Positions 3,479 to 38,341 of a stretch of 64,000 nt of DNA are shown in pieces. The notes under the pieces are model-generated. The model was not told where the DNA came from. It did no database searches and saw nothing but the letters and a program-made list of their open reading frames with translations. The stretch is from positions 53,994 to 117,993 of the IMG/VR virus record IMGVR_UViG_3300014205_000185, one strand, 5' to 3'. Position 1 is the first letter of the stretch. Every line of letters starts with the position of its first letter. Both the position numbers and the translations under genes were made by a program. The DNA is from a virus. Lineage: Duplodnaviria > Caudoviricetes.

Positions 3479-4434
3479 TGCCATGACCCTTCGTAGACGG
3501 CTTCCCACTTTGATACGTGTTTGTCGATCGTAAACTCCAGCGCCTTGAGCATGGCAGCATTGCTCATTTGCTCCCGGAGGGTGTCATCGGTAAGGGCGTG
3601 GAGGTACTTGGGCCAATCGTCAGGCTCGCGAACCAGGAATCCATTCACTCCGTGATCGATAATGTCGGCATACTCCCCGATGTCACTGGCGATGGCCGGG
3701 ACGCCCTGAGCGAAGTACTCCTTGACCTTGATTCCGCTCTTGCATTGGTTGAACGGAGTGTCGACCAGTGGGGCGATACCGATGCTGAAGTCCATCGCCT
3801 TCCAGTAGTTCTCCATGATGTCCCAGCCGGTGTAGCGCGCTCGCACGTGTGGGGCCATGTAGTTGGCCCCGATGCAGTGGAACCGAGCCCGCGGCTCATG
3901 GGCGGCATAGATCGCCAGCTGCTGGCCGACGCCGGGCCAGTCCTGCTGATGGAACATGCTGCCGGCCCAACCGACGATGACCTCGTCGCCCTGTTGATGG
4001 CGCACCGAGGCGATCCAGTCGGCCGGCAGGCAGTTGGGCAGCACTACGACATTGGGATTCAGCTCCCGCATCCGGGCGGCGAGTTTCGGCGTCGAGACCG
4101 TGACCACGTTGGCGAGCCGGATGTTGTTGGCGGTGTCGGCGGCGATCGGAGCGTAGATCGAGTACGGCAGCGAGTTGCTCGGGTCGACCTCTAGCAGGTT
4201 GTCGTCAAGGTCGTAGACCGCCAGGAGGTTGGGATTGGCGCACATCTCCTCCCAGGCCGTGTTCTTACCCGCGATTCGTTGACCTATAACGACATCACCT
4301 AGCGATGGGTCCGGCGGTGGCGGGGACCAGTGCACCTCGAAGCGACTCGGGTCGAGCTTGTTCAGCGGGTAGTGCAGACGGTACAGATAGCAGGCGGCGC
4401 CATCGGTGGCGATGGCAAAGATTCGAGTTACCAC
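3475..4434 (-). CDS. GT4-family glycosyltransferase
   Basis: YDLDD, VTVSTPKLA, VGWAGS, IGIAPLVDTPFNQCKSGIKVKEYFAQGVPAIASD, DHGVNGFLV. Confidence 0.88.
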   Translation of the reverse strand: MVTRIFAIATDGAACYLYRLHYPLNKLDPSRFEVHWSPPPPDPSLGDVVIGQRIAGKNTAWEEMCANPNLLAVYDLDDNLLEVDPSNSLPYSIYAPIAADTANNIRLANVVTVSTPKLAARMRELNPNVVVLPNCLPADWIASVRHQQGDEVIVGWAGSMFHQQDWPGVGQQLAIYAAHEPRARFHCIGANYMAPHVRARYTGWDIMENYWKAMDFSIGIAPLVDTPFNQCKSGIKVKEYFAQGVPAIASDIGEYADIIDHGVNGFLVREPDDWPKYLHALTDDTLREQMSNAAMLKALEFTIDKHVSKWEAVYEGSWQ

Positions 4435-21459: not shown

Positions 21460-21600
21460 TGCTGGACCTCTCGGATAGCACGTAGGTAGCACGCAGCTAG
21501 CCAGGCGGCCCTCAGCACAGCCCTGGATTCAATTGAACGCAGTGTAGATCTAGGCGATATATCTGTGCAAGCAAGGAACTGCTTCACAGTTCCTTTTTTT

Positions 21601-22006: not shown

Positions 22007-22186
22007 ATGGCCAAGGAATCAGAAACGATCATCATGAACGATGCCGACGGGAACCCGGTCAAGGACCCGAAGAAGGCAGCCACGGCCGAGATCACTCGGG
22101 TTGACGCCAACGGCAAGGTCCGGCGCACGCTCATGCTGGGACCAGATGCCGAGCGGCAGCAGCCGTCAAGCCCTGGCGGCTGGTAG
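22007..22186 (+). CDS. small protein antisense to the head operon (59 aa)
   Basis: Manual translation MAKESETIIMNDADGNPVKDPKKAATAEITRVDANGKVRRTLMLG...; GGGAG RBS; high-GC3 codons. Confidence 0.5.
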   Translation: MAKESETIIMNDADGNPVKDPKKAATAEITRVDANGKVRRTLMLGPDAERQQPSSPGGW

Positions 22187-25100
22187 GCCGTAGCCGGGCG
22201 ATCTCCGCCAGCTGGGCGGCAGCTGACTGCGGGAAGATCTGGTCGAGAACAGCCGCCCGCTCCGGGAACAAATCCCGGAACCAGATCGGCACCCATGCGT
22301 CCTCGCCTTCGGCGTCACGGAAGATGCCTTCGCCTACTTGGCCCGTGAAGTAGAGCGAAATGGCCTCGGCAAAGTCCTCATGGATGTCAGAGGTGCCATA
22401 GTTCGTGACTCCGCGAGGAACCGGACGCGACGCATCCGGCGTTCCCCGGATGTCGGCGCTTGGTCCCTCTCCGTTCGGAACGAACCGGCGCAGCTGAGCA
22501 CCGGGCCGGTCACTCCGCGCCGCCTGCTGCCACGCGGGCGAAGTCGAGCGCAGCCGTGGGGGGACGCCTTCCTCGATGTTGTGGCCTAGCTCGTGGTCCA
22601 GGTATCGCTTGAGTCGGTCACGATCGGCTGACAGCAAGCGGTCGGTCTGCCAGATGGCAACCTCACCGTCGCCGGCCGAGGCGGCTGACCAGAAGTCGGT
22701 CAGGCCATACTTCTCCGCCATCTCAGCGTCGTTGGGGTTCGCGCCCACCATGGCGTAGTAGGCCTTCTGGTAGCCCCGGGCATCCGGCGCCAGCGAGTCC
22801 TGGTACGCGATGAGGCGATCCCGCATGAGACGCGCGCTGGCCCGTCCTTCAGGAGTGTCCGGGTGCTCGACGGTGTAGTCGACGCCGTCGCGCTTCCAGT
22901 TCGTCGCGTTCTCGATCGTGTACCCGTCTACGACCTTGCCCTGGACCTTGGTTCCCATGCTCATTCGCCGCGGAGCCGGAGAGCCCTGTCTTGACGGTAC
23001 CGATCGGGCCTGGGCTCGGGCTGTTGGCGTAGCCCGAGGAACACTCGCCTGTCCGACTGCTCCAGTGGCTGGGCGCATTGTCGAGCCGCCCGGCGTCCGG
23101 GCCAGGATGGCATCAGCCCGACCGAGAGCCGCGTCGTACCAGTCCTCATGTCCGGCAGCGACAAACTCCGGCTTCATCTCAACGAGCTTCGTCCTGGCGT
23201 CCAGAACCTCCTCGCGAGTGAAAGGCATCTTGTCGGCCCACCGGGTGGTTCCGTTCGGAGCCTCTACGGTGGTGCCATAGTGCTGAGCAAACGGGTCAAA
23301 GGAGTTTGGCGTCTGAGGCATCTGCTCACCACGGTAGGAGACTGGCGCCCCCATGAAGCTAGCCGCGTGGTCGATGCCGTGCGCGTTGCCGTCCGCGTCA
23401 ATGATGATGTTGTCGTCGTGGCGGTCGACGTTGCCAGTGATGAGATCGAGCAGGTGCAGTCGGCGACCTCTGTCGCTAGCCACCGCCTTATCGAGTCGCT
23501 CCTGATCGGACCCGCCGGCTTGCCCTGGCACCAGGTCCATGAACACGGTGTCGTCGCTGGAGCGGTAGGTGGACGGGACGTCGGCACCCATGCTTCGTCC
23601 GTACTTTGAGGACAGATCCTCAGACAGAGCCTGGTCATTGGCCGAGTAGTCCCAACCAGGGCCGTCGTCGCGACCTGTCTTCTTGCGGATCATGGGTCGC
23701 CCGTCGGCCCCGGTTACTCGATGAACGGTTGAGTAACTGCGGTCGCTAAGCCTTCGGCCCACCCTCGGCTTCCCGCTCTCTACGCTGGCCTGGAGGTCGG
23801 CCGGCGTGGCGCTTCCCTCCTTCTTCGAGGGGGTCCGGAGGGTTGCCTTCTTGGCTGCCGGTGCGCCGACCAGCTTCTCAGCGAGGGCCCGACGCAGGGC
23901 TGGCTTCGGCTGGATCGGGTCCACGCCGACGGAATCCGCCACCTCGCGCATGATGTCGAGGCCGACGTTCTTGTCCTCCATCCACGCCTCTGCCTCGTCA
24001 GGGCTATTGAACCCCCGAATCCGCTCGGCCATTCCGTCCGGGGTGTCGGGCACACCCTCGCGTGTGATGCGAGGCTTCGACGGAGCAGCTGCCGGCGACG
24101 GAACTGAAGGAGCAGCCTCGGGAGCGTTGCCAGCCCGCAGACCCTTGATCCATTCGCGCATCTGAAGGTGGACGTCGTCGCCGTGCTTGCCACCGGTCGT
24201 AACCCGATCGGCAAGACCCCACATCCGGTAGGCGCCGTCCACGCTCTCGTGATAGGTACGCAGCGGCTTTGTGATGCTGTCTTCGGCGTTACCGAGGCTG
24301 ATCTCGCCCTTCTTTTCGTCGATCTCGCGAATCGCTCGGACGACTCGATCCAGGGCGGAATCTTCTTCGGTGGTGATCCCGTATAGATGATGTCCACGAG
24401 GAGCCCTAGCGACAGGGATCTTGTGCAGATTCTCGACTAGAGCGCGCAGTGCTGGTGGAGTTCCGTCCGGCAGATCCGGTAGGTCGCCCTTGGGGATGTC
24501 CAACTCCCTGATGGCCTGGTCGAGCTTCTTCTGGAGAGCGGGGTCAGTCTCGACCGACCGCAGTCTCTTCAGTTCCTCGACCATCCGCTGTGGACCGTCG
24601 AAGTCGTTAGCGTCGTCGCCACGGTTGGTGCTGATGGAGCGACGAAGCTCCATGATCTCGTTGGCAGTGCCGTTACGACCCTTCGCGGCGTAGGCCTGAG
24701 CTAGAGTCATGCTTCTGGAGTCGCCGTGCATGAGCGAGTTATCGCCCTCGGGATCCGTGACCAGCGGGACATCTTCCTTGATGGCCGAGGTGGCGGGAGC
24801 CGCCTTCGTCGGTGCGGCTTTACGCGGCGCCTTGCTCACGGTGACGTCGAGCTGCCGGATGCCGTCAACAGTCCGGTCACGGGTCACTGTCATCTGGAGC
24901 CCGCGCTCTAGCAGGATCTCCTTGTTCTGGTCGTCCTCCTCGCCGTATCCACCAAAGCGGATCGCCTTAATGCCCTTGGGCACGTCGAGGCGAAGCATGA
25001 TGCCAGGCTTCTTCGGGTCCATGCCACTGTCGGCATAGGTCCGGGAAATATCCCGATCCACCGAGGTGGACATGAAGCCGGGGTCATCGAAGACGCGGCC

Positions 25101-28100
25101 GACCAGTGATCCCTCTCCCTCAGGGAGGTCCTTGAACTGGTCGATACTGTGTGGACGGGCGATGCCACGCCACGTGCGGACAGAGACCGGCAGCGGTGAC
25201 TCGTCCATTACCTCGTCGATGAGCTTGGTGGCCTCTGTATCTCCAGCCTCACGAACCTTCCAGGGGGACGTGTCGCCGTCTTCGATGTTGTAGCCGTGCA
25301 ACGCCTTCTCGGCCTTGGCGAGCTTCTCTGTCGACCATCCCTTTGGCGGAGCCTCGAACTCGGTGGTCATCTCCATGTCCCAGATGGAGTCGGTCGGGCC
25401 TCTCTTGTCGCGGGTAATAGTCCGGACAGTTGGCACTGCCAATGCGTCGTCACCCTCGACGAATCCGGTTGAGGTCGCGGCAGGCGTGACCTTCCTCAGC
25501 TCGGCTGTGGCCGTAGCGTTCTCCACATTGGACTTCGCTACGCCTGCCTCAACGACCTCTGGAGTGACCTCTTCTGTCGGCTTCTTGCTGCCATTGAGTT
25601 CGTCGGCGATGTCACGCAGGCGCTTGGCGTCGGACCTGCCCATGGCCTGGCGCATGCTGCCCCTGGTCGTGGCGTGCGTGTCGAGGACGTCTCGGTTGAT
25701 GACGTCCCGCCTCTCCAGCGTGTCGGCCTGGGAGCGTAGGTCCCGAGCCACAACGGCCGGGTCTTCGCCGTTGGTGATTCGACGCATGGCCTCGTCACTG
25801 GAGCCCAGGCCCTGGACCGTCTGGATCTTGCCGTCGCGGGCCTCCAGGCGGTCCAGCATCTCGGTGTAGTTGTTGCGCCGCTCCACGCCAGCCCTATCAG
25901 GACGCGGGATAGCCGTCTTCTTGGGTGCGATCTTTCTGGCTGGCGCCGCCTTGGTTACGCGCGTGGGGCTCGGGGTCGCCTGCACGGTCGGTGGTTCACG
26001 CAGCGAAGCACCTGGGTTCGGGCGTGGCACCGGAGCAGTACGGGCGCCCTCGGGTACCTCGGAGACAATGGCTCCTCGGTTGAGGATCACGTACTGTTCG
26101 TTGGCCCCATTCACCGGATCGGTGCCGAAACCCTGAGTGCCCTGCGGGACGAAGATCGCGTCATAGCCGCGAGCCATGGCGTACCGGCCCGGGTCAGCGA
26201 AGGCGACCTTCTCCGGACTGTCGTCTTCCAGCGAGAACAGGTATCGGTTGTGCTCGCGGACCAGGTCATCCCATTCGATGATCTTCGCGTCCCTGCGCAT
26301 GCCGAATCGACCCAGCGAGCCCGGGGTCTTGTCGGCATAGCCGTTGGCATGACCAAACCGGCGGGTCATATAGGTGCCGTTGCCGAAGATGCCTTCGCCC
26401 ATCCGGTACGGGCCATCCCGGAACTCTTCGTGCACCTCTGCGGCCGGCTTGCCGTATTCGCCACCCTTGGCACCACGGAACAGTCGGAAGTCGACCTCCT
26501 TGGTGCGCAGCATCCGAGTGAACTCCTCCGGTGTGACCAAAGTGGTCGGCCGGTCGAAGCCCTGCTCGGCGGCGAGAGCCTCGCCGATCGCATCGCCGCC
26601 CGTCAGCGGCCCTTCAAGCTCACCGCTATCGCTACCCCAGCCGCGTGGCGGCTTGGCGCCTGAAGCCTTGGCTCGCTCGATCGCCCTGGCAGCCACGCCT
26701 GGCTCGGCGATCAGGTCGCGGGCAACTGTTGGCCTGGTCTCCAGCTCCGCTCGACGAGCCACGTCGATGTCCTCGAAGTGAGCGACGATGGCCCTCTTGA
26801 TATCCGGCGTCTTGGCATTGCTCTGGCCGTCGACTCCAAGGTCCTTGGCCAAGGTGCGCCACGTAGCGACCGGAATCGGTTGTCCATAACGCTCTCGCCC
26901 GCGGTACGGAGTCAGGCGCCGCATCTGCGCGTCGTACACCTCCAGCATGCGGGCCCTGGCGGCAGGACTTGGGGCCTGACTCAGGTCCCGAGTAATGCCC
27001 TCAGGGTTAGGCGTCCCATCCTGCCTGATCGGCCGACTCGCCAGCTCGGCCTCTTTTTCCGCCTTACGTGCCGCCTTCCGCGCGGCGATGCGCTCATCGA
27101 GCGCCTTCCGGTCGGCTTCGATCTGCTCAGGAGTTCGGGTGTCAGGCGCCGCCTTTGGTGGCTTCTTCGGCACAGTGGGCAGACCCGTATCAGCTAGTCG
27201 CTGGGCCCGCAGATCTGCCGTCTCGTTGTAGTCATCCAGGATCGCGGTCCGGACGTCTTCAGGGCTGGACCGGTCTAGACGGTGCCCGCCAAGGAGGCCG
27301 CGAGCCAAGGTGCGCCACTGGTTGTTGTTCAGCTCGCCCAGGTCGTCGAGGACTGCGGCGCGCTCTTCCGGCGTCTTTGCTTCGATCAGCTGCTGACGAA
27401 CCTTGACAGCGTTGACCGGACCACGGAGGGCTGGCTTCTTGACCGCGGCCGGCACTGCCTTGGCGAGTTCAGCAGTGGCCTGGTCAGTCTCCAAATTGGA
27501 CTTGGCGACGCCAGCCTTGGCGACCCTCGGAGTGACCTTTGCGACCGGCTTGCTTTCCGGCGCTCCCGATCCAAATATCTCAAGGCTGTGGACGATTTCG
27601 TCGCGGGTCCGCTCTCTATCTCCCCGCAGGCCAACCGGCAGCTTGATACCGGCTGCACGGGCAACAGCCCGTAGGTCGGCCTCGTTCAGATCCTTGAGAA
27701 CTTCCGCCTTGGCGGCACGGCCATCGGCCACAGACGCGGCGTCTGCGATCTCTGTGATGCGAGCCCGACGAACCTCGGGTCCCTGCCGCTTCGGTGCCGG
27801 CATGGGTCCAGAGGAGCCGCGCCGTGGGCCCTTCGCTCCATGGCGCTTCGCGATGGTCGCGATGAGCGCGTTCTTGTTGCTGGGAACGTCGGACACGTCG
27901 ACATCAAGCTCAGCGGCGACCTTCCTCAGCTCAGCGGAGGTGAGGTTCTGTCGGTCGAGTTCGCGAACGAGATAGGCCTCGTCGCTGCGGTAGCGCAGCG
28001 CGTCGGCAACCTGCGTCTCGTGATCCGCGGCCTTGGGCGCCGCCTTCTTGACGGCGATCTTCTTAGTAGGGGCCGACGCTCTGCCGCCGCGCGGTCGCAA

Positions 28101-31100
28101 CTGCACCCCGGACTCGGTCAGAACCCGGTGCACCCACGCATACGACCGGCCGGTGGAGTTGGCCAATTCTTGGATGCTCTCGCCCGAGACGTATCGCTTG
28201 ACCAGGTCCTTCGCCAACGTCGCGCGCTCGGGGCCGAGGATTCGTCGGCCCTTGTCGGTTGCGACGGCGGCAGTGGTCTTCTTGGCGGCGACTGTCTTCG
28301 TCGGCGTAGCGGCCTTCTTCGCTGGCACCGTCTTGCGTGCCGACGGAGCGAGCACCTCCGCGATCCGGTTCATCTTCTCGTCGTCGCCATCGCCACGTAG
28401 CAACGCGCGAGCCCGGGTCTTGCTGATCCGCTTCTTCTCGATACTGCCCTTCATGACGCCGACGTGGGCGCGCTGGAGCGGAGTCAGCTCATCCCAGGAC
28501 GTGCCGGCCTGCTGGAGAATCGGCTCAAGCTCGGCGCGATTGTCTGCCTCCATTGCCTCAAGCTGACGAGCGCCGGCCGCCCTGCGCTCCTCATCCCTCT
28601 CAGCACGAGTCTTACCGGGGCCACGGATCTCGCGACGGATTGCAGCCTTGGTCTCCCGGTCGACTTCCGCCTGAGTCCGTGGGGCCGCCTTCTCTGGAGC
28701 TGCCATCTTGGCGGGCGCGGCCTTGCGTGGGCGGGTGCTGATCGCGTCGCGAATCTGCTTGCGCTGGGCCGGAGTCAGGTCCCCGTCGTCTCTCAGTAGG
28801 CCCTTCATGGCCTGTCGGACGAAGTCTGGGTGACTGGCGTACAGGTCGTCGACCAGGTCCCGGGTCAGTGGCGTCCAGCCGACCTCCCGGATCTCGGTGC
28901 CGTCCTCGGGCCCCTTGAAGTCGACATTCGCTTCGTCGCCAACGAGGTGACGGTGGCTAGCGGTGGTCTCCATCCAGGCGTTGTCGGTGTTGCGCGGATC
29001 GTCGACATATCCCTTGTAGACCTCCCGAGCCCTCGACATGTCGAGGTCGGCGCCGGTCTCTTCCTTGAACTCGCGACCCAGCGCCCGCGAGACGGTCTCT
29101 CCGTCGTCGACCATGCCACCGGGAAGTGCTCTCTGAGGCTTTCCATCGACCAGCTCGCCGCGAGTGATGGTGGCGATCTCCAGTTCGCCAGTCTCCGGGT
29201 TGATGCGCGTGACGATGTTGTCCGCGGCCGGATTCGCGCCCCACTTGCCAAGCAGACCGCGACCCTGGACGCCGGTCCGGGTGTACGGGTTGCGGGGGCG
29301 TCCCTTTGCATCGAGGGTGACTTCGCCCTCAAGGCTCGTGAATGGACGGTCGACGGCGGCCACGTCCGGCGGATCCGCCCAGCCGCCCTTCTTCTTCGTC
29401 CGGTCGTTGTCCAGGACCGTCTTCGCGGTGTAGTCAGGTGGGTTGTAGCCAGGGAACGGCGTAAACCAGTCGGCCTTGATGCCCGGCGTCCGTTGCCGCT
29501 TCGGGTAACCCTCGGGCTGCTCAGTGCGGGACTTGACCGACCGAGCAACCCGCGCGTCGCGTTGCGCGGGAGTGAGCGCGCGAGCCTTCTTGGCGGGCGC
29601 GCTCTTCGCCTCCTGGTCAAAGGCTTCGATCTGGTCGGCTGCCTTGCGCAGGCTCGCCGCCGACTTGCGCATGCGCGCCTGCACGATGGGATCAGTCCGC
29701 CGCGAAGCGTCATCCTCCGTCCGGGCGGCTCGCTCACGCAGGAGGGCTGGATCCCGGTCCTGTTCAATGGCGTGCTTTACCGCAACGTCGCCCAAGACCG
29801 GTGTCGAGTGCTCGTACGCCAGCTGGTCAATGAACCGGTCGCGCGCCCGCTCCTGTGTGGACTTCCGGGGTGCAGCCTTCTTGGCAGGGGCGGCCTTAGC
29901 CGGAGCTGCGGCCTTAGCCTTGCGCCACGCCTCGACCTGAGTGAAGTTTGAGTCTGCGAAATCCTTAGCCTCGGCTGGCGTTAGTCCCTTCCTGTCGGCC
30001 AGGAGGTACTTCTTCTTCCAGTGCTCCGACGCTCCCTCGGGCAGCCCCCGCTCGCGCAACGCCTTGACAATGCGGTCCTTGATCTGAGTCTGAGTGAGAT
30101 GGCCACCCATGGCCTCGGGGATGCCGGCCTTACCAGCGACTTCACGCTGTCGGGCGCTAGGCAGTCCATGTAGGACGCGGCCGACGGCCAGAGTAAGCCC
30201 GATATCGCCAAGGTTGGCTGCATCGATATCCCGCAGCGCCTTACCAAGCTCATCATCGGTTGGTGGGACCCTGACGGGCCGTGGCGTCTCGGTGAACCGG
30301 CTTACCAGAGTTCGAGCTGAGGTGACATACGGAGCAGTCCCGCCACGAACGGTGGAACCCATGCTGTCCCGAAACGTCTGCGTGTCACCGCTGTCTGCGA
30401 TTCGGCGCAGGTTGGCCAGAACCTTAGTGCGTTCGTCGTCGGGTAGCGCATCGAAATCGACCCGGGACATGGACTCGCGCTGACGAACGTACGCCCGACG
30501 GTCCGTCGGGCGAGCGATCTCGCGTGGGAGTTCAGGCTCTCGCTCCGGTGTAACGTCGCCGGCACCCCGGCCGCCGATGTTGCCCTTGGCGAGGAAGAAC
30601 GCCTCATCGTGCTGGAGTCCCCGGTCGCGCCGGTCCTCGTAGATGGCGCGCTCGCGAGGCGTCAGGGTGTCGACCTGGCGCCGTTGGGCCGGGGTCAGTG
30701 TCCAGCGAGGGGTACCAGCCCTTGGCGCTGGAGGCTCTCCCAGATCGATTTCGCGTCGAGCTGCTCCGGTGTCGCCAGCCACTGGCCGACGGGGTGCCGA
30801 CTGAGCGCTCAGGGAGGCCGCGATCCGGTTCATCGGAGAATCGGTCGGCTCGTCAATACGACGGAGGCGACGAGCTGCCGCGTCCGGCGTGATGACCTCA
30901 CGGCGGACTTCGTCTCCGACCGCGGTCAGCGCAATGCGATCCATGTCGCCAAGGTCGGAGTTCTTGACCTGGGCGGACTTCAGCCAGCCGTCGGTGAGCT
31001 TCTTCGTGGCCCGCATCTCCAGACGGTCCCGGGCGGCAGCGACGCGCAGCTCTTGCGCGGACGGCAGGGCGGGAGCTGGAGCAGCTGCTCTCTTGGCTGC

Positions 31101-34100
31101 CTTCTTAGCCGGTACCTCAGGAGCAGCCTTCTTCGCAGGAGCTGCGGCCTTTTTAACCGCAGCCTTCTTGGCGGGAGGGGCCTCCGGTGCCTCGCGTGGG
31201 AATTTCCAGCTCGCCTGCCGTGCACCGGCTGGCCGGTAGTTGCGCTGGACGGTTCCCGCACGTGCTCCGGGGTTCTCCTCCATTTCCAGCAGGCCACGAC
31301 GTACCAACGTCCGAGCAGTCGCCGGCCGTGGGATATCGCGCTCGACGACCCATCCGCCACTGTCTTCCGGCTCGGTGCGCCGAGACTCGTTCGAGATCCT
31401 GGTAACCAGGTCCAAGGTCTCGCGCTGCTGCGGAGTAAGGCGTGGTTCTTCAGACGCGGCGGCCTTAGCCGCGACCTTCTTGGCTGGTGCCGCCTTCTTG
31501 ACAGGTACGGCCTTCGCTGCCGGGGCCGCAACCTTCTTGGCCGGTGCCGCCTTCTTGACGGCGACCTTCTTGGCTGGCGTCACCTTCGCGGCAGGGGCTG
31601 CCTTCTTAGCTGCCCTCTTCGCCTCGAATTGCCGCATGGTTTCGTTGTAGTCACGAATGTCGCTGACGATGCTGCTCTCCTGAGCAGTGCCCAGGTACTG
31701 CGGGTTCCCGTCCTCGAAATGCCAGCGGTTTCCGCGCGACTTTCCACCTGAGCCAGCGCGGACAATCTTGTTGAAGCGGGGACGGCCATAAGACGTGCCG
31801 AAGAAGTACATGCCCGGCCGAATGTCCTCGGGACCGGTAGCGATCTTCGCAGGGTCGATCCTCTGTGCCCGCATGGCTCGGGCGATCTGCGCGTACTTAG
31901 GTCCGTACTCACGCTCGTCATCCAGCCACTGCTGGCGCTCAACCTCTGCGGCTGTGGGCGCCTCAACGGCCGGCTCGGCTGCCTTCTTTGCTGGCGCCTT
32001 CTTAGCCGGTGCCGCCTTCTTGACAGCGACCTTCCTGGCGGGCGCAGCGCCAGTCGGGTTGGCGGGATTGAGCTTGATCCGCTTGTTGCGACGAGAGAGT
32101 TGCTCCGTCTGCTTCGGTAGCTCCCGGTCGCCCAGTGCCGATGGGTGGATGAACGACAGGTTCGGATCGGTGATGTCCACCCGTTCCTGGGTGTTCCCGT
32201 TATCCCAGGCGATAGTGACATCGCCGTTCTCGTCGCGCCGAATACGGCCACGGACGACATCACCGTCGGGGCCGGTCCAGACGGCGATGTCATTCGTCGT
32301 CGGCTGGTCGAGAGTCTTACGGTCGATAGCGCTGACCGGCTGCTCTTCGGACTCCAACGCCCGCTGTGCAGCGGGCGACGTCTCAGCCGCAGGCGCTGCC
32401 TTCTTGGCAGCCCTGGCCGGAGTGGTCTTCTTCGCGGGGGCCGGAGCCGCCTCCTCAGCGACCGCCTTTCGTGGCGCTACCTTCTTGGCCGGCGTCGCCT
32501 TGGCGGCCTTGGCTGCCTTCTTGGCAACCGGAACCTCGACGGGCTCAGCGATGGCTCTTGCGGCCTCGCGGGCGACACGAGCCTTCGCTGCCTTGGCCGC
32601 TCGTGTCTCTTGTAGACCTTCAGCGACCTTCTTCCAGGCTGCCTTCTCGGCCAGGCCCTTCTGGTCGACGCGATCGATGCTGTCGGCGTAGTCCTCGATC
32701 TCCTTGCCGAGCTTGACGCGGGACTCACCACGGTCGAGCCGGTTCTGATACTCGCGAGCGCGAGGAGAGTCCAGCGCTCCAGCATCGGTGCCAGCGAGTC
32801 GGCGGATGCCCGGCTTCTCTGCATCGCCAGGGGCAGGCGGTGCCTCCGGCCCGGTACGCATGGCCTTGGCGGGCGCCTTCTTGGCGACCTTTCGAGCAGT
32901 AGCAGCGCGGCGCCGTGGCTCGGGAGCGCCGGCCCTGACTCGGACCGCCATCTCGTCGAGAAGGTCTGCATCGCTGTTCTGGACGGCGCGCATGCCGGCG
33001 TCGTTCACGTCTACGCTGCTGTCGAGGCGGTCCTCAGTGGGATCGAGGAGATCGCCCTCGCGTAGCTCCTTGGCGTCCCGAGCCAGGCTGTCGGCAACGA
33101 AGTCAGGGAGCGCGCCATCGTTTAAGTCATAGGCTGCCGCTCGGATGACGTCGCGAGCCTTGTAGGTCTGAGCCCGAGCCTCATACTCGTCGACCTCGGC
33201 ATCAGAGATCGGCTTTGGCTCTGCCGCTGCCTTGGCGGCAGCCGCCTTCTGGGCCTTGGTGGCAGGGGCCTTCCTCGGGGCACGGGCCGCCTTCTTGGCA
33301 GAGGTCGCCCCTTCTTCTGCCTGAGGCTCTGGCTCCCGCTCCGGTGGAGGCGTGGCAATGCCAGCTCGGACCCGGTTGGCGCGCTCGTGGATCCGGCGCT
33401 CGTCGTCGTTGCGTGGATATGCGGCGCCGACTTGCTCTTGGAGTTGCTGGTCCCGGCGAACAACGGCAGCATCCCTCTCCGCCTCCTGGCGCTTGGCTTC
33501 AACCGTGGTGATTCGTGGTTGAGCCTCGCGCTGGCGACGGGCCTCGTTGCGCTGGCGCTGCTCCTCGACCTGCTCTCGGGTCTGAGTACTGGTGCCTGCG
33601 CGCTCCTTGCGGATCTGACGAGCCTGCTCCTTGATCCGACGCTCCCGCTCGTTGCGCGGGTAACCCTCCTCTTGGGACAGTTCGTAGTCCTCGGAGATGA
33701 TGAGGTCGTCGCGGTCCTCCTGGGTTGGTTCGGAGCCGGCCGTCTTGATGCGACGGTCCTCGATCCGCTTCTGGTCGCGCTTGGCTTGAGCCTCGATCTG
33801 CTGCCGCGTCTTGGCCGGAGGCGCCGCCTTCTTTGCGGGAGCTGCCGGTTGCTCCTGTTGTTGTGCCGCCTCGTCTACGCGCTTCTGGTCGCGGAGCGCG
33901 TCCAGCTCCATGCGGAGCCTGTCGTTCTCCTCGCGGTAGTTGTCGTTGTCCTCTCTGAGTTGCTTGTCGAGGCGTGCCTGAAGGTCGTCGAGGCGCTTCT
34001 CCCTCTCCAGCTGGACGCGCTCGCGCTCAAGGCGCAGCTTCTCGGCCTCGCGCTGGGCAGCGTCAGGGGCCGCCGGTTCGGCAACCCTCCGCTGGGCGGT

Positions 34101-35060
34101 AGACCTGTCTCCCGGGTTGTCGGCGACGCCTGTGTCTTCGAGCTGCTGTCGCTGCGCTTGGGACAGGTCTCCGCGCTCTACCGGCTTCTCGCCAGGGATG
34201 CCCGCTTCGCCGCGAGGAAGGACTGACCCCTTAGGAACCGGCTGGGGCGCCGTCTTAGGTCCCTCGACGGGATTGCCATTCGCGTCCAGTCCACGGCGAG
34301 CCAGCTCTTCGGGAGTGGCCTCGATCGCTGGCGCCTTCTCGCTCTCAGGCAACTCCCTGCCCAGGCCGCGGGCAACGCCAACACCTCGCTGCGGAGCCAC
34401 CGCAGCAATGACGTACTTACCTCCACCAGGCGCATCGTCAACTCGAATGATCTGGAGCTGGGTCTGCTGAGCCAGAATGACGTCACGGTTGCCGTTACCT
34501 ACGACAACGGCCTGTGTGCCCTTGGGGGCCAAGATTGACCAGGTGACGTGGTTCGGTCCACTCGGCACCGTCTCCGGCGTCGTGATGTTGGTGGGCGCGA
34601 AGCCCAGGTCCCGAACGAGCTTGCCGGTCCACTCCTCGACTTCATCCATCCGCTCCGGCGGCAGGCCGAAGGCGTCCGGACCGGTGACACGAGTGAGGAG
34701 CATGTCGTAAGGCAGCTCCTCCATCATGTCGTCCATGTCCTTGATTACGCCTGACGGACCACCCGGCTTCTTGGTGTCGTAGCCGGCGCGTAATGCGGTC
34801 TGGACGTCCTGATTGCCCTGCTCGGTGATGAAGTACTGAAGGCTTTCTTCCTGCTTTTCGGTCCGCTTCTTGCGGCGCGGCACCGCAGCCAAATAGCCGG
34901 CGCCATGGGCGTCGGACTTGAATTCGGCTGGATCGGCTCGCTTGAGTAGGGCGTCGACGAACTTGGCCATTGCACCAGAGATCTTCCACGAATCGCGGAA
35001 GCGACCCTTCTTATCCCGAGGGTGTAGCTCTGGCTTCCAACGACCGAGGTCGACGGCCAC
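22131..35060 (-). CDS. giant polyvalent head-module protein (ART-like x3, NUDT9-like Nudix, HTH, kinase, Zn peptidase)
   Basis: 4309-aa ORF; HPRDKKGRF; GGMVDDGE..REFKEETG; WRG..FMSTS..KEILL; GNVDRHDDN..GIDH; HELGH..EDFAE. Confidence 0.85.
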   Translation of the reverse strand: MAVDLGRWKPELHPRDKKGRFRDSWKISGAMAKFVDALLKRADPAEFKSDAHGAGYLAAVPRRKKRTEKQEESLQYFITEQGNQDVQTALRAGYDTKKPGGPSGVIKDMDDMMEELPYDMLLTRVTGPDAFGLPPERMDEVEEWTGKLVRDLGFAPTNITTPETVPSGPNHVTWSILAPKGTQAVVVGNGNRDVILAQQTQLQIIRVDDAPGGGKYVIAAVAPQRGVGVARGLGRELPESEKAPAIEATPEELARRGLDANGNPVEGPKTAPQPVPKGSVLPRGEAGIPGEKPVERGDLSQAQRQQLEDTGVADNPGDRSTAQRRVAEPAAPDAAQREAEKLRLERERVQLEREKRLDDLQARLDKQLREDNDNYREENDRLRMELDALRDQKRVDEAAQQQEQPAAPAKKAAPPAKTRQQIEAQAKRDQKRIEDRRIKTAGSEPTQEDRDDLIISEDYELSQEEGYPRNERERRIKEQARQIRKERAGTSTQTREQVEEQRQRNEARRQREAQPRITTVEAKRQEAERDAAVVRRDQQLQEQVGAAYPRNDDERRIHERANRVRAGIATPPPEREPEPQAEEGATSAKKAARAPRKAPATKAQKAAAAKAAAEPKPISDAEVDEYEARAQTYKARDVIRAAAYDLNDGALPDFVADSLARDAKELREGDLLDPTEDRLDSSVDVNDAGMRAVQNSDADLLDEMAVRVRAGAPEPRRRAATARKVAKKAPAKAMRTGPEAPPAPGDAEKPGIRRLAGTDAGALDSPRAREYQNRLDRGESRVKLGKEIEDYADSIDRVDQKGLAEKAAWKKVAEGLQETRAAKAAKARVAREAARAIAEPVEVPVAKKAAKAAKATPAKKVAPRKAVAEEAAPAPAKKTTPARAAKKAAPAAETSPAAQRALESEEQPVSAIDRKTLDQPTTNDIAVWTGPDGDVVRGRIRRDENGDVTIAWDNGNTQERVDITDPNLSFIHPSALGDRELPKQTEQLSRRNKRIKLNPANPTGAAPARKVAVKKAAPAKKAPAKKAAEPAVEAPTAAEVERQQWLDDEREYGPKYAQIARAMRAQRIDPAKIATGPEDIRPGMYFFGTSYGRPRFNKIVRAGSGGKSRGNRWHFEDGNPQYLGTAQESSIVSDIRDYNETMRQFEAKRAAKKAAPAAKVTPAKKVAVKKAAPAKKVAAPAAKAVPVKKAAPAKKVAAKAAASEEPRLTPQQRETLDLVTRISNESRRTEPEDSGGWVVERDIPRPATARTLVRRGLLEMEENPGARAGTVQRNYRPAGARQASWKFPREAPEAPPAKKAAVKKAAAPAKKAAPEVPAKKAAKRAAAPAPALPSAQELRVAAARDRLEMRATKKLTDGWLKSAQVKNSDLGDMDRIALTAVGDEVRREVITPDAAARRLRRIDEPTDSPMNRIAASLSAQSAPRRPVAGDTGAARREIDLGEPPAPRAGTPRWTLTPAQRRQVDTLTPRERAIYEDRRDRGLQHDEAFFLAKGNIGGRGAGDVTPEREPELPREIARPTDRRAYVRQRESMSRVDFDALPDDERTKVLANLRRIADSGDTQTFRDSMGSTVRGGTAPYVTSARTLVSRFTETPRPVRVPPTDDELGKALRDIDAANLGDIGLTLAVGRVLHGLPSARQREVAGKAGIPEAMGGHLTQTQIKDRIVKALRERGLPEGASEHWKKKYLLADRKGLTPAEAKDFADSNFTQVEAWRKAKAAAPAKAAPAKKAAPRKSTQERARDRFIDQLAYEHSTPVLGDVAVKHAIEQDRDPALLRERAARTEDDASRRTDPIVQARMRKSAASLRKAADQIEAFDQEAKSAPAKKARALTPAQRDARVARSVKSRTEQPEGYPKRQRTPGIKADWFTPFPGYNPPDYTAKTVLDNDRTKKKGGWADPPDVAAVDRPFTSLEGEVTLDAKGRPRNPYTRTGVQGRGLLGKWGANPAADNIVTRINPETGELEIATITRGELVDGKPQRALPGGMVDDGETVSRALGREFKEETGADLDMSRAREVYKGYVDDPRNTDNAWMETTASHRHLVGDEANVDFKGPEDGTEIREVGWTPLTRDLVDDLYASHPDFVRQAMKGLLRDDGDLTPAQRKQIRDAISTRPRKAAPAKMAAPEKAAPRTQAEVDRETKAAIRREIRGPGKTRAERDEERRAAGARQLEAMEADNRAELEPILQQAGTSWDELTPLQRAHVGVMKGSIEKKRISKTRARALLRGDGDDEKMNRIAEVLAPSARKTVPAKKAATPTKTVAAKKTTAAVATDKGRRILGPERATLAKDLVKRYVSGESIQELANSTGRSYAWVHRVLTESGVQLRPRGGRASAPTKKIAVKKAAPKAADHETQVADALRYRSDEAYLVRELDRQNLTSAELRKVAAELDVDVSDVPSNKNALIATIAKRHGAKGPRRGSSGPMPAPKRQGPEVRRARITEIADAASVADGRAAKAEVLKDLNEADLRAVARAAGIKLPVGLRGDRERTRDEIVHSLEIFGSGAPESKPVAKVTPRVAKAGVAKSNLETDQATAELAKAVPAAVKKPALRGPVNAVKVRQQLIEAKTPEERAAVLDDLGELNNNQWRTLARGLLGGHRLDRSSPEDVRTAILDDYNETADLRAQRLADTGLPTVPKKPPKAAPDTRTPEQIEADRKALDERIAARKAARKAEKEAELASRPIRQDGTPNPEGITRDLSQAPSPAARARMLEVYDAQMRRLTPYRGRERYGQPIPVATWRTLAKDLGVDGQSNAKTPDIKRAIVAHFEDIDVARRAELETRPTVARDLIAEPGVAARAIERAKASGAKPPRGWGSDSGELEGPLTGGDAIGEALAAEQGFDRPTTLVTPEEFTRMLRTKEVDFRLFRGAKGGEYGKPAAEVHEEFRDGPYRMGEGIFGNGTYMTRRFGHANGYADKTPGSLGRFGMRRDAKIIEWDDLVREHNRYLFSLEDDSPEKVAFADPGRYAMARGYDAIFVPQGTQGFGTDPVNGANEQYVILNRGAIVSEVPEGARTAPVPRPNPGASLREPPTVQATPSPTRVTKAAPARKIAPKKTAIPRPDRAGVERRNNYTEMLDRLEARDGKIQTVQGLGSSDEAMRRITNGEDPAVVARDLRSQADTLERRDVINRDVLDTHATTRGSMRQAMGRSDAKRLRDIADELNGSKKPTEEVTPEVVEAGVAKSNVENATATAELRKVTPAATSTGFVEGDDALAVPTVRTITRDKRGPTDSIWDMEMTTEFEAPPKGWSTEKLAKAEKALHGYNIEDGDTSPWKVREAGDTEATKLIDEVMDESPLPVSVRTWRGIARPHSIDQFKDLPEGEGSLVGRVFDDPGFMSTSVDRDISRTYADSGMDPKKPGIMLRLDVPKGIKAIRFGGYGEEDDQNKEILLERGLQMTVTRDRTVDGIRQLDVTVSKAPRKAAPTKAAPATSAIKEDVPLVTDPEGDNSLMHGDSRSMTLAQAYAAKGRNGTANEIMELRRSISTNRGDDANDFDGPQRMVEELKRLRSVETDPALQKKLDQAIRELDIPKGDLPDLPDGTPPALRALVENLHKIPVARAPRGHHLYGITTEEDSALDRVVRAIREIDEKKGEISLGNAEDSITKPLRTYHESVDGAYRMWGLADRVTTGGKHGDDVHLQMREWIKGLRAGNAPEAAPSVPSPAAAPSKPRITREGVPDTPDGMAERIRGFNSPDEAEAWMEDKNVGLDIMREVADSVGVDPIQPKPALRRALAEKLVGAPAAKKATLRTPSKKEGSATPADLQASVESGKPRVGRRLSDRSYSTVHRVTGADGRPMIRKKTGRDDGPGWDYSANDQALSEDLSSKYGRSMGADVPSTYRSSDDTVFMDLVPGQAGGSDQERLDKAVASDRGRRLHLLDLITGNVDRHDDNIIIDADGNAHGIDHAASFMGAPVSYRGEQMPQTPNSFDPFAQHYGTTVEAPNGTTRWADKMPFTREEVLDARTKLVEMKPEFVAAGHEDWYDAALGRADAILARTPGGSTMRPATGAVGQASVPRATPTARAQARSVPSRQGSPAPRRMSMGTKVQGKVVDGYTIENATNWKRDGVDYTVEHPDTPEGRASARLMRDRLIAYQDSLAPDARGYQKAYYAMVGANPNDAEMAEKYGLTDFWSAASAGDGEVAIWQTDRLLSADRDRLKRYLDHELGHNIEEGVPPRLRSTSPAWQQAARSDRPGAQLRRFVPNGEGPSADIRGTPDASRPVPRGVTNYGTSDIHEDFAEAISLYFTGQVGEGIFRDAEGEDAWVPIWFRDLFPERAAVLDQIFPQSAAAQLAEIARLRPTSRQGLTAAAARHLVPA

Positions 35061-35305: not shown

Positions 35306-36391
35306 TTACCGAATGCCCAGGCCGAGCTGCTCGCGCTCTTCGTCGATAGCGGCCAGCTGCTCCATCCGACGACGCTGGTTGTGCTCTTCCAGCTCCTGGT
35401 CGATCTGAGCTAGACGCTCCATCCGCACTGACAGCTCGGCGGCGTCGTCCACCACGTCATCAGCCGGCACCTCGGTAGCGGCGGTGAAGCTCTCTGCCTC
35501 GCTCATGCTGAACTCTCCAATCGTGTCCTCCTGGCCCAGGACGCCGACAGCCATGAGGCTGAAGGCGTGTCCACCCTGCTCCCGATAGATAGGGAAGCCC
35601 GGGTTATTGACGGCCAGGGCAGCAATCAGTTCCAGATTTCCGTTGACCTCACGCCAGTCGCCGGACAGCGCAGAGGCGCGCAGCTCGGCAATCCGCTCTG
35701 GAGTCATGTTCGTGGTCAGTGCGCCGTTAACCCAGATGCCATGCCGGTCCTCGCCGACGTTGACAACCGCCGCGGCCCAGCCGGTGTTGTCGTAGTGCTC
35801 GCGGGAAGGCACGATGCCCCACTGGGCATTGGCGTGACCGGTCCCCAAAGTGATCTTCCCGATCGGCTTCTCGGCACCGTCGTCGCACCGGACGGTACCG
35901 ACCCGGAACAGGTTGTAGTTGGTACGGGTCTTAGGTGCCATTACGCAAGCGCGGCCGATGCCGACGTGGCAGACCTTCCATTGCGCCAGGTGGCCGAATA
36001 CCCGACCGTCGTCAGTGATGGTCAGCTTGGTGGGCGCCTTGAGCCCCGGATCTGCAAACCACGCGGACGGCGGGGCCAGGGGCGCAACCGACGCGAGCAG
36101 AGCAACGGCATCGTCTCGTAGCGAAACAGCATCAGCGCCCATTTCCCCGGTGTGCTCCGCCATCTCGATGCCATACTCCTTAGCCGCCTCTCGGATCCGA
36201 CCCCACATCAGCTTGAGCTGTTCGGCCGAGTACTTTTCCGCATTCTTCGGCATTGAGAGGTAGGCGATGGCTGCCAGGACGTGGGGCTCAGAGTCGATCG
36301 GATAGCGGGCAGTGCTCTCCCGGTATCCAGGGTCGGCGTACTTCACGTCGGCCTTAGGGCCGTACGGCGTCTTGACCTTGTTCATACCCAT
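35306..36391 (-). CDS. capsid maturation protease-like protein 2
   Basis: GGAG RBS at ATG 36391; YADPGY..RYPID..H N-domain; GRVFGHLAQW..CH, HYDNT, GEDRHGIW, LSGDWR, LELIAALAVNNPGFP. Confidence 0.75.
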   Translation of the reverse strand: MGMNKVKTPYGPKADVKYADPGYRESTARYPIDSEPHVLAAIAYLSMPKNAEKYSAEQLKLMWGRIREAAKEYGIEMAEHTGEMGADAVSLRDDAVALLASVAPLAPPSAWFADPGLKAPTKLTITDDGRVFGHLAQWKVCHVGIGRACVMAPKTRTNYNLFRVGTVRCDDGAEKPIGKITLGTGHANAQWGIVPSREHYDNTGWAAAVVNVGEDRHGIWVNGALTTNMTPERIAELRASALSGDWREVNGNLELIAALAVNNPGFPIYREQGGHAFSLMAVGVLGQEDTIGEFSMSEAESFTAATEVPADDVVDDAAELSVRMERLAQIDQELEEHNQRRRMEQLAAIDEEREQLGLGIR

Positions 36392-36401
36392 GGCGCTTCT
36401 C

Positions 36402-37613
36402 CTAGTACCCGCACTTTTCGCAGATACCGTCGGCGAATACGTGCTCGCCGTCGGCACCGTAGGCTTCCTTCTCTTCCTCCATGCTGTGCATTACGTCCAT
36501 AGGAGGAACCGTTGGTACGAAGGTAATGGTGATGTTGCTGATCGGCTGCATCGGACCGCCGAACATGAACGTGTTGGGGTTGGATCCGTTGGTGGTTATG
36601 GTGGCCGGCACTTGCTGAACTTCCATGACCTGCTCCTCGCTTACGGTGAATCCCTCGTCGCATCCGCAGTCTTCCTCTGCTTCAGCGGACGCACGTAGCG
36701 CTGGCTGGCCTTCGCCCTCCTGGAAAGGAGAGACCAGGTTGGGGTCATTGAACGCTTGAGCCATGGCCCCGTATATCTCGTTGATGACCGGCACCATCGC
36801 CTGCCTGTCTGCATCCGGGATATTCGGCAGTCCGCCGTGAGCCCCGGAGAGTAGGGCTGCGGCCGAATAGACGGCGTGATAGATGAGATGTGGCTCGTTG
36901 TTGATGATGTCGGCCAGTGGCAGCCGGAAGGAATCCTGCGCCAGGGAGTCGCCGGCCTGGTTGCCGTTTCGCCACAGGAAGGTCGAAGCGTACCGACCGA
37001 GGTCAGGCTGCTTGGAGCCGATGCCCGACCAGTAAGCGATGCGCTTGACGGCGTCATCCGCGTCGAATTTGTAGTCCCGTGGCGCCAGTGGCCACGTCTT
37101 CCAGCTTTCTGCGTTGACGTCGAAGGAGCCCCAGTCGCTCATGTCCACGCCAGCCGAAGCCAGGAGCGACTTCTCGACGTCGTTGTCAACGGACATGTGC
37201 ACCTGATGGAAGGCCGGCATCGGGACCAGAGTTACGCCGATGACGTTGTACTCCTTGAAGAGGCCCGCCTTCTTGTCGGGGCGGAGCGGATGCGCGATTG
37301 CCTCCACGGTGAAGTCCCGGTCTAAGTCGACGCTGGGTCCCATCACCTTGTTCTGGAGCATGTAGATGGCCTTGGTGACCTCAGGAACAACCTCGGGGTC
37401 AAGGAACGTGCCCTCGATCCAATAGCCACCTATGCCGGGGTAGACGTTGTCCACCTTGCCTACGACCGCAGCGCCATCGTGGCCGCCGGAGGTGAACCGA
37501 GCCAACAGCGGGAAGGGCGTTGGCCGATGGGTCAACTTTCCGGCCGCGAACATCCGACCATCGCCGGTCGGAACCTCGGTTGGGGCGGCTAAGCCCCTGA
37601 AGCGAATTGTCAT
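36402..37613 (-). CDS. capsid maturation protease-like protein 1
   Basis: PTGDGR, GHDGAAVVG, GPSVDLD, GVTLVPMPAF; ATGA overlap with MuF stop. Confidence 0.78.
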   Translation of the reverse strand: MTIRFRGLAAPTEVPTGDGRMFAAGKLTHRPTPFPLLARFTSGGHDGAAVVGKVDNVYPGIGGYWIEGTFLDPEVVPEVTKAIYMLQNKVMGPSVDLDRDFTVEAIAHPLRPDKKAGLFKEYNVIGVTLVPMPAFHQVHMSVDNDVEKSLLASAGVDMSDWGSFDVNAESWKTWPLAPRDYKFDADDAVKRIAYWSGIGSKQPDLGRYASTFLWRNGNQAGDSLAQDSFRLPLADIINNEPHLIYHAVYSAAALLSGAHGGLPNIPDADRQAMVPVINEIYGAMAQAFNDPNLVSPFQEGEGQPALRASAEAEEDCGCDEGFTVSEEQVMEVQQVPATITTNGSNPNTFMFGGPMQPISNITITFVPTVPPMDVMHSMEEEKEAYGADGEHVFADGICEKCGY

Positions 37614-38341
37614 GGCGTCACATCCAGAATCCGCAGGTTGCACCGACAGTTACAAACATTGGCTGGAGTGGCAGAGGGATCGCCCGGGAAAAGCAGGCTC
37701 TCACCGCCGACGTCGAATGGAGCGTTCAGCGTCCTGACTTGGTTATTGGCCAGTCGGTGCGCTGTCCTCTCCTTGTCGTCCATCGTCGTGTTCCACTGCT
37801 TCATGAGTAGCTTCTTGTCCTGGTTCTCGACTAGGAAGGCATGGGCCAACATGCTGCCCGAGAAGTGCCTTGTCGTTTCGGTCTGAGCTATAAGGCGAGC
37901 CCTAGCTGGCCAGTTCTCGCTACCTGTGTACGTCAGCACATTGTCCACGCGATTTGCGATTTGATCCAGCGTCTCGCCAGCGTTGGTGCCCTCAAGAATC
38001 TCCCTGACGACCAGGGAATGAACCTCTTTCGGGATGTTCACCAAAAGGTTCTTGGTCAGCGCGAGATTGGCCTGAATGAACGGATCAGCCGGGTCATAAG
38101 GCCGAGGCAGACTCGCTGCGGCCCAACCTTCCCGCTGAGCCGGTGTCAGTACCTGAAGAATCCGGTCTACCTGCTGCTCCCAGAACGGAACAGTCGCATA
38201 GATGGCGGCTGGATTGGGCTGTGCGCCGAACTGCTTGAAGGGGGCCATGACCGCGTCCCGGGCACGCTGGAGCCACAGCTTCAGGCCGTTTGATGCGACC
38301 TTGAAGATGCCCTCCTCGCCTGCTTTTCCGGGACTAGGCAT
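37610..38341 (-). CDS. MuF-like minor head protein
   Basis: RARLIAQTE, KQW, R.AH, PFDVGG, FPGDP, NCRC. Confidence 0.88.
   Translation of the reverse strand: MPSPGKAGEEGIFKVASNGLKLWLQRARDAVMAPFKQFGAQPNPAAIYATVPFWEQQVDRILQVLTPAQREGWAAASLPRPYDPADPFIQANLALTKNLLVNIPKEVHSLVVREILEGTNAGETLDQIANRVDNVLTYTGSENWPARARLIAQTETTRHFSGSMLAHAFLVENQDKKLLMKQWNTTMDDKERTAHRLANNQVRTLNAPFDVGGESLLFPGDPSATPANVCNCRCNLRILDVTP

Follow-up and report, generated by a model that had tools for sequence, protein, structure and literature searches.

What part could an ADP-ribose (ADPR) pyrophosphatase domain of the NUDT9 type play inside a giant protein that a phage encodes among its head genes? The question is raised by a stretch of 64,000 nucleotides (nt) (positions 53,994 to 117,993 of the IMG/VR virus record IMGVR_UViG_3300014205_000185; hereafter the window, with coordinates counted from its first letter), in the translation of which the domain lies on the minus strand, inside a single open reading frame (ORF) of 4309 amino acids (aa) at 22131-35060. 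The segment is predicted, from the biochemistry of the family (PMC8145809), to encode a catalytically competent NUDT9-type Nudix domain, composed of cap and core, which would hydrolyse ADPR specifically and in a Mg2+-dependent manner to adenosine monophosphate (AMP) and ribose-5-phosphate. We regard it as probably the active, ADPR-specific pyrophosphatase module of a virion-packaged polyvalent effector that takes part in a conflict with the host over nicotinamide adenine dinucleotide (NAD+) and ADPR.

A NUDT9-type domain with a cap and an intact active site

The sequence-only reading of this DNA had placed the domain at 28810-29470 and quoted a series of motifs for it. All of them were found by motif search in the translation, in one minus-strand frame and in order, between aa 1920 and 2077 (28830-29303): GRPRNP (aa 1920-1925, 29286-29303), GRGLLGKWG (aa 1933-1941), PGGMVD (aa 1980-1985), REFKEE (aa 1996-2001, 29058-29075), YKGYVDDPRNTDNAWMET, which includes DPRNTDNAW (aa 2015-2032, 28965-29018), and LYASH (aa 2073-2077, 28830-28844). 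The interval took in the Nudix core, and the cap except for about 70 nt of its N-terminal part: from homology, the AlphaFold2 model and fold alignments the domain extends over aa ~1840-2090 (28791-29543, minus strand), BLAST against phage relatives puts its limits at aa 1836-2090, and the envelope of the hidden Markov model (HMM) spans 28737-29606. The N-terminal cap subdomain occupies aa ~1840-1940 (29241-29543), and the catalytic core with the Nudix fold, delimited by the Pfam NUDIX match, the motifs and the conservation table, aa ~1941-2090 (28791-29240).

The assignment to the NUDT9 type rather than to generic Nudix proteins was borne out by sequence, conservation and predicted structure. 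When a 281-aa piece (P0002) was compared by phmmer with all PDB sequences, human NUDT9 (1q33) was the top match (E 1.1e-32, 240 residues, chain residues 7-272), followed by the NUDT9-H domains of the Nematostella and Salpingoeca TRPM2 proteins (E 2.5e-30 and 6.8e-23, respectively) and, scoring below NUDT9 and these chanzymes, by human TRPM2 (E 4.8e-20); the top Nudix protein outside the NUDT9 type reached an E of 5e-5 only. Judged by sequence, the match of the domain is far above chance. Pfam NUDIX matched the generic core (aa 1969-2081, E 1.9e-11 to 3.9e-10), and PF25969 was the precomputed annotation on all homologues.

The AlphaFold2 model, built on 115 homologues, was confident over the full domain (predicted local distance difference test 95, predicted template modelling score 0.90). 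Its top Foldseek match was 1qvj (E 2e-22, template modelling (TM) scores 0.73/0.71, 290 columns). In VIA-align, model residues 1-275 aligned with residues 61-346 of NUDT9 (Z 25.2, root-mean-square deviation 3.0, 244 aligned), and the Salpingoeca rosetta TRPM2 chanzyme scored almost as high (Z ~24.4). Generic Nudix proteins aligned with the core alone, from model residue ~101 onward (Z ~15), and model residues 1-100 were matched solely by NUDT9 and TRPM2 NUDT9-H chains. Since NUDT9 and TRPM2 align over the whole model and generic Nudix proteins only from residue ~101, the cap subdomain is present; in NUDT9, a specific ADPR pyrophosphatase of cap and core, the cap is treated as characteristic (PMC8145809). 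Membership of the T4 NudE-like or NadM-like clades was rejected, because the cap is present and the matches were restricted to the core and below the cut-offs: NCBIfam NudE gave E 0.015 and the NadM-type models 1e-3 to 7e-2, far under the cut-offs and in the region of the Nudix box only. The PHROG family MutT/NUDIX likewise matched the core only (E 1.2e-8), as did the phage Nudix and NMNAT-Nudix proteins among the viral structures of BFVD (TMq <= 0.41).

The Nudix box, read from the translation at aa 1982-2004 (29049-29117, minus strand), agrees with the signature GX5EX7REUXEEXGU without a single deviation (G-MVDDG-E-TVSRALG-REFKEETGA; G1982, E1988, R1996, A2004). Conservation was assessed on 14 phage-clade domains and 115 cellular homologues aligned to one profile, and R1996, E1997, E2000 and E2001 were invariant in all of them. 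Columns conserved to at least 85% in the cellular homologues were kept in the phage clade with scattered exceptions; the domain studied here departs from them at 1858 (T for V), 1927 (T for G), 1973 (G for D) and 2056-2057 (E-I for D-A). It carries the family motifs that lie outside the Nudix box (GRPxNPxGRTG..GRGxLGxWGxNxAAD, YxGYxDDPRNTDNAW and LYAxH) and retains the conserved positions of the cap (Y/P/R/W/WADP/GRPxNPxGRTG). Among phage relatives, the ratio of nonsynonymous to synonymous substitution rates of the domain is 0.08-0.15, and it is the best conserved module of the giant proteins (51-65% identity, versus 30-44% for their other common parts); such purifying selection and conservation fit a working enzyme.

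These observations bear on the reading that the domain is a non-catalytic ADPR sensor, like NUDT9-H of vertebrate TRPM2, or an antidote in cis that limits the toxicity of the ADP-ribosyltransferase (ART) domains in the producing cell, which we consider extremely improbable. The vertebrate NUDT9-H binds ADPR without hydrolysing it, and RIL or KK substitutions in the Nudix box abolish the activity of NUDT9, the vertebrate TRPM2 domains so changed being inactive (PMC8145809). The box of the phage domain does not show this degeneration (REF to RIL, lost glutamates): it is the canonical REFKEE, invariant in the clade. As to an antidote, toxins fused to MuF, e.g., Bxa, are neutralised by neighbouring immunity proteins that include an ADP-ribosylhydrolase (PMC11699363). 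A pyrophosphatase would make a poor antidote; self-immunity is the weakest option because such an enzyme restores neither NAD+ nor the unmodified target. Furthermore, no immunity-like small ORF was identified beside the giant gene, the neighbours of which are MuF-associated and capsid genes, and this counts against the antidote.

One change is specific to the phage clade, the family "D-A" at aa 2056-2057 being replaced by "E-I/V", and it adjoins conserved motifs of the substrate region. It could thus be seen in favour of another substrate: the domain might act on messengers derived from ADPR (2'/3' cyclic ADPR (cADPR) of type I Thoeris, His-ADPR, N7-cADPR), so that cleavage of the pyrophosphate would silence TIR signalling. 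Each of these signals retains the pyrophosphate of ADPR, cleavage of that in 2'cADPR yields pRib-AMP, a step for which a Nudix enzyme has been suggested (Manik et al., bioRxiv 10.1101/2022.05.07.491051), packaged Nudix proteins have been proposed to act against NAD+-derived signals (Iyer et al. 2022, PMC9503650), and delivery by the virion would suit an immediate counter-defence. We nevertheless judge such substrates unlikely, given that NUDT9 is highly specific for ADPR (O-acetyl-ADPR is bound 500-fold more weakly; PMC8145809), that the residues of the substrate region are identical to those of housekeeping cellular homologues, that 2'/3'cADPR is reported to be stable, and that the EVADES preprint, which deals with phage anti-defence proteins, mentions neither Nudix nor ADPR in its text.

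Phage relatives and the wider cellular family

The closest domains (51-65% identity) sit in other giant phage proteins, several of which are fused to MuF, portal or ART domains. In a word-indexed search limited to longer proteins, domains of 61-64% identity were found in proteins of 1463-1976 aa together with Phage_Mu_F, Phage_portal, ADPrib_exo_Tox or PI3_PI4_kinase. Phage_Mu_F was present in P0124, P0133 and P0200 and Phage_portal in P0123; in P0124 the order is MuF (130-251), NUDT9 (395-646) and ART (942-1089). A scan of IMG/VR retrieved ten loci, and the 50,697 GenBank phage records gave zero tblastn matches at E<=1e-5 (own or near-identical records being possibly excluded from them). One of the related loci (L005) is syntenic with the window: its portal (72% identity), MuF (62%) and two intervening ORFs (66-73%, fused there) are followed by a giant ORF of at least 2146 aa. 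In another (L006:20-19366, on the 158-kb contig IMGVR_UViG_3300037483_001116), an ORF of at least 6448 aa with an open 5' end contains the NUDT9 domain at 3334-3614 and shares the kinase/zincin-like C-terminus of the giant ORF of the window, here in duplicated form, and is followed by a capsid gene of 62% identity; the synteny of the head genes extends to this locus as well. It ranks, to our knowledge, among the largest phage ORFs. Pfam detected NUDIX alone, and no ART, in this ORF.

ART and NUDT9 occur together in most proteins of the phage clade (P0124, P0125/L002, P0126/L003, P0133, P0144 and the protein of the window), in varying order, which raises the possibility that the two act on one substrate. 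The domain would then strip AMP from ADPR bound to macromolecules, leaving a phosphoribosyl stub that resists macrodomain and ARH erasers. A two-step modification of this kind has an analogue in Legionella SidE, with its ART and phosphodiesterase, and a review lists NUDT9 with NUDT16 as cleaving the phosphodiester of protein-linked poly(ADP-ribose), with phosphoribose left behind (PMC6414514). The co-occurrence is weak evidence for such a pathway, because ARTs are the commonest enzymatic domain of polyvalent proteins. Moreover, ART was undetected in four giant proteins that bear the NUDT9 domain (L006, P0123, P0137 and P0200), and since the domain is present in ART-less proteins an obligatory coupling to ARTs in cis is argued against. 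The cap that positions free ADPR is fully kept, and the same sequence features are seen in cellular homologues fused to enzymes of NAD salvage. Removal of AMP from bound ADPR is accordingly quite unlikely as the function of the domain.

A phylogeny against NUDT9, proposed earlier as a check, was run: the phage domain clusters with phage and bacterial members, apart from eukaryotic NUDT9 and TRPM2. FastTree with 111 domains recovered the phage sequences as one group (support 96), and a mixture model in IQ-TREE with 59 domains recovered a phage group that includes P0200 with moderate support (Shimodaira-Hasegawa-like approximate likelihood ratio test 90, i.e., <95). In both trees, the eukaryotic NUDT9/TRPM2-like sequences and two sequences of giant viruses form a separate, well-supported group. 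Planctomycetota/Myxococcota appeared as sister to the phage group in FastTree only, the mixture model did not reproduce this position, and we do not claim any donor lineage.

The sequence-only reading had set the NUDT9 type against generic bacterial Nudix proteins. The type itself stands, as shown above, but it is not foreign to bacteria, in which it forms part of a large prokaryotic family. An exhaustive HMMER search returned 2612 cluster representatives at E<=1e-3 and 318 at E<=1e-30, and matches in genomes came from Patescibacteria, Myxococcota, Thermodesulfobacteriota, Planctomycetota, Chlamydiota, Bacteroidota, Omnitrophota and some Actinomycetota. The "eukaryotic" NUDT9/TRPM2 module is therefore part of a family that extends broadly through prokaryotes and viruses. 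In its cellular members, fusions with NMNAT, nucleoside hydrolase, inositol-monophosphatase-like, NAPRTase, NadE or SLOG domains are frequent, and by such associations the native contexts of the family point to ADPR/NAD+ salvage and to ADPR sensing.

The fusions to NMNAT, NAPRTase, NadE, nucleoside hydrolase and inositol-monophosphatase-like domains, which point to a salvage enzyme, and the location of the gene within a late structural operon might suggest that the phage domain serves metabolic salvage late in infection. The repeated fusion to MuF or portal in the phage clade is hard to square with a purely cytoplasmic metabolic enzyme, and NAD-salvage genes of the NAPRTase family are otherwise absent from the genome; we thus hold late salvage to be very unlikely.

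Several other arrangements were met with in the wider family. A complete NUDT9-type domain is tandemly duplicated, with two copies per protein, in P0127, P0128 and P0130 (Patescibacteria/Saccharimonadales) and in L055 and L059, all from bacteria of the candidate phyla radiation. Two metagenomic proteins, P0243 (2927 aa) and P0244 (4008 aa), combine NAD synthase, NAPRTase, NMNAT, isochorismatase-like, radical-SAM and HAD domains with 2-3 NUDT9-type domains, and may represent either an entire NAD pathway on a single chain or fusions introduced by gene calling. In Omnitrophota, an ORF of at least 3369 aa from a metagenome-assembled genome (L029) has the domain at aa 2635-2912 and an ORF of 2201 aa in Ca. 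Omnitrophus magneticus (L052) embeds one too; these giant ORFs may be polyvalent proteins of prophages or giant cellular proteins. A divergent NUDT9-like Nudix recurs on 51 actinobacterial plasmids, large Streptomyces plasmids among them, one of which is the linear plasmid NZ_CP108662.1 of Streptomyces anulatus (L012, 110748-111818), where it stands beside ATP-binding and GGDEF proteins. These plasmid sequences match the phage domain at ~34% identity only, and were rejected as its source, as they are stand-alone genes on a long, distant branch.

Head-gene setting and the likely role of the giant protein

The virus record, of which the window forms the second half, is 117,993 bp long, has inverted terminal repeats and received a CheckV completeness of 100%. 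The source is a landfill metagenome; near-identical DNA was present in three DNA sequencing runs (two from landfill and, partially, one from groundwater), and no RNA runs with near-identical sequence were listed among the matching runs. On the minus strand the genes follow in the order portal (38334-40256; phrog_776, E 1.5e-140; 72% identity to the portal of L005), MuF-like head morphogenesis protein (37610-38341; Phage_Mu_F, E 8.5e-9, and PHROG families of head morphogenesis), two ORFs that correspond to the rest of the MuF-containing PHROG, the giant ORF, the major capsid gene directly downstream of it (19771-21492; phrog_777, E 4.8e-123) and, later, the tape measure gene. The two ORFs (36402-37643 and 35306-36457) overlap by 56 nt and are represented by one 966-aa ORF in L005 (L005:4220-7120); MuF and these two match successive parts of the 807-aa phrog_859; the arrangement reflects a true division of the gene, a programmed frameshift or an error in the assembly. 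The nearest isolate relative of the capsid protein is the major head protein of the Actinoplanes phage phiAsp2 (44%), and its other matches were all from actinophages. An actinobacterial host is therefore likely, as far as capsid similarity indicates.

Polyvalent proteins, as described by Iyer et al. (2017), are encoded in the head module and combine several unrelated effector domains. The giant gene lies between MuF/portal and major capsid, and NUDIX, ADPrib_exo_Tox and HTH_58 were all significant in its product, which is encoded by an uninterrupted frame (GC content at third codon positions 0.75). The earlier claim that the NUDT9-type domain belongs to an ART-bearing protein was confirmed, as the same ORF contains an intact ART of the R-S-E type (WRG, MSTS, NKE) at aa 3227-3421 (24798-25382, minus strand; Pfam ADPrib_exo_Tox, E 1.9e-14; clade HMM, 5.6e-71). 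Its third motif reads N-K-E (aa 3379-3385, 24906-24926), where phage relatives have E-R-E, E-G-E or D-T-E; the catalytic Glu is retained, and the altered first position may, to judge from the motif, reflect a changed target specificity. The next module past the Nudix domain is a helix-turn-helix of the HTH_58 family (aa 2269-2327, 28080-28256, minus strand; PF19575, E 3.1e-23).

The remaining elements of the giant ORF are weak. The C-terminal region (aa 3700-4309, 22134-23963, minus strand) is kinase-like (PI3_PI4_kinase, E 4e-4, below the cut-off) and contains an HExxH motif (HELGH, 22581-22595); its aa 3771-4307 share 34% identity with the C-terminus of the L006 giant ORF. A degenerate, ART-like region near the N-terminus (aa ~64-212, 34425-34871, minus strand) matched ADPrib_exo_Tox at E 0.0032, below the cut-off, and the clade HMM for ART at E 0.015. 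It is overlapped by a conserved N-terminal module: aa 1-289 share 44% identity with the beginning of the giant ORF in L005, and L006 is matched by aa 192-297. The module, which carries an HPRDKKGRF motif (aa 13-21, 34998-35024), might be the part that targets the protein to the capsid. Between the modules, at aa 584-2557 (~27390-33310), there are at least nine low-complexity linkers of the "PAKKA" type, rich in A, K and P, and shorter stretches of like composition flank the Nudix domain on both sides. The linkers presumably resemble the basic tails of nucleoid proteins of actinobacteria, an analogy by which they could bind packaged DNA.

Proteins in which ARTs and Nudix domains are fused to MuF or portal have been argued to be packaged in the head and injected, acting against NAD+-derived signals (Iyer et al. 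2017, PMC5512222; 2022, PMC9503650). On this published model, and from the position of the gene and its homologues, the giant protein would most likely travel in the capsid and enter the cell together with the DNA. The ADPR pool of the host, possibly along with close derivatives of ADPR, would in that case be exposed to the hydrolase from the earliest stage of infection; the specificity of the family favours free ADPR as the presumable substrate. Defence NADases and the host enzymes that erase ADP-ribosylation by the phage all yield ADPR, which is also a ligand of ADPR-sensing regulators, so that its removal could blunt ADPR-dependent responses of the host at the time when the ART domains modify host targets. 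Of the parts of this proposal, the purpose is the least certain. Rebuilding of NAD+ by a phage pathway was excluded as an explanation: neither NAPRTase-family genes (NARP1/NARP2) nor macrodomains were found in the window's own genome, and the giant ORF carries its sole Nudix.

A number of points weigh against an ADPR-specific, virion-packaged effector. Activity and packaging are predicted, for this protein as for the rest of its phage clade. The giant ORF is itself unfused to MuF or portal, and for this reason packaging is argued from position and homologues. As a hydrolase of free ADPR restores no NAD+, it is not obvious what the phage would gain; such an enzyme would, besides, compete with an ADPR-recycling NARP1 pathway, though the genome has no NAPRTase-family gene. 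Because the gene lies in a late operon, a late role in the cytoplasm is possible, and to these points must be added the moderate support for the phage group under the mixture model and the change at aa 2056-2057, with which specificity may differ. Even so, we consider the ADPR-specific effector the probable explanation.

A broader proposal, which we regard as doubtful, would make the protein a virion-delivered eraser of signals, in which cleavage of the pyrophosphate silences both TIR-type messengers and the free ADPR that induces ARG operons (through NrtR-like/WYL regulators). In host ARG operons, released ADPR has been predicted to induce expression via Nudix/WYL repressors (Iyer et al. 2022, PMC9503650). 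If true, this would be the first counter-defence of the pyrophosphatase class against ADPR signalling, co-injected with the ART payload and protecting it.

Under the effector reading, as under this broader one, the chemistry is that of NAD+ and ADPR, one of the chief fields of conflict between phages and bacteria (Thoeris, SIR2/TIR NADases, DarTG and the NARP pathways, with Tad and RyDEP as counter-measures). Uncultured phages have taken up a separate, strongly conserved clade of NUDT9-type domains into giant effectors of the head module, in many cases next to ARTs. The domain, well delimited and easy to express with its ~250 aa and confident model, is a testable candidate for an injected, ADPR-degrading counter-measure at the onset of infection.

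Comparison with known systems

No paper on NUDT9-type domains in phages was found in the literature searched. The concept of a virion-packaged Nudix combined with ART has already been published as a prediction; a cap-bearing, NUDT9-type clade in phages has not. In the polyvalent proteins of Iyer et al. (PMC5512222, PMC9503650), as here, a giant protein of the head block combines ART and Nudix and has relatives fused to MuF or portal, but the 2022 survey places most phage Nudix domains in T4 NudE-like/NadM-like clades and leaves NUDT9 unmentioned, whereas the domain in the window is of the NUDT9 type with its cap.

Human mitochondrial NUDT9 (1Q33/1QVJ) shares with the phage domain the cap and the Nudix core (35-39% identity over ~245-290 positions) and the motifs GRPRNP...GRGLLG.WG.N.AAD, DPRNTDNAWMET and LYASH; the box reads REFGEE in NUDT9 and REFKEE in the phage domain. 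Two insertions of NUDT9 are missing from the phage domain (gaps in the phmmer alignment), and NUDT9 is a eukaryotic housekeeping enzyme that stands alone, whereas the phage domain is one module of a 4309-aa protein. The TRPM2 chanzymes of invertebrates (S. rosetta, 8SR7 etc.; N. vectensis, 6CO7) likewise carry a NUDT9-type domain with a canonical box in a larger protein, and ADPR pyrophosphatase activity of the chanzyme NUDT9-H is documented (PMC8145809). There, however, it is the C-terminal domain of a eukaryotic ion channel with an ADPR site in SLOG/MHR; the phage domain belongs to a head module and is accompanied by neither channel nor SLOG.

The toxins fused to MuF in prophages (Bxa ART, Apk2; PMC11699363) resemble the giant protein in their head-module site and in an ART of the ADPrib_exo_Tox type on a protein targeted to the capsid, as the giant protein probably is. 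They consist of two domains and have separate immunity genes, whereas here MuF is a separate gene, the modules are many and no immunity gene was recognised. The RyDEP glycosidase of actinophages (PMC13232231) and Adps/Namat of NARP1 are engaged with the same family of metabolites, in a conflict over NAD+ and ADPR: RyDEP yields ADPR by opening the ribose-ribose bond and NARP1 rebuilds NAD+ from it, whereas an enzyme of the NUDT9 type would destroy ADPR.

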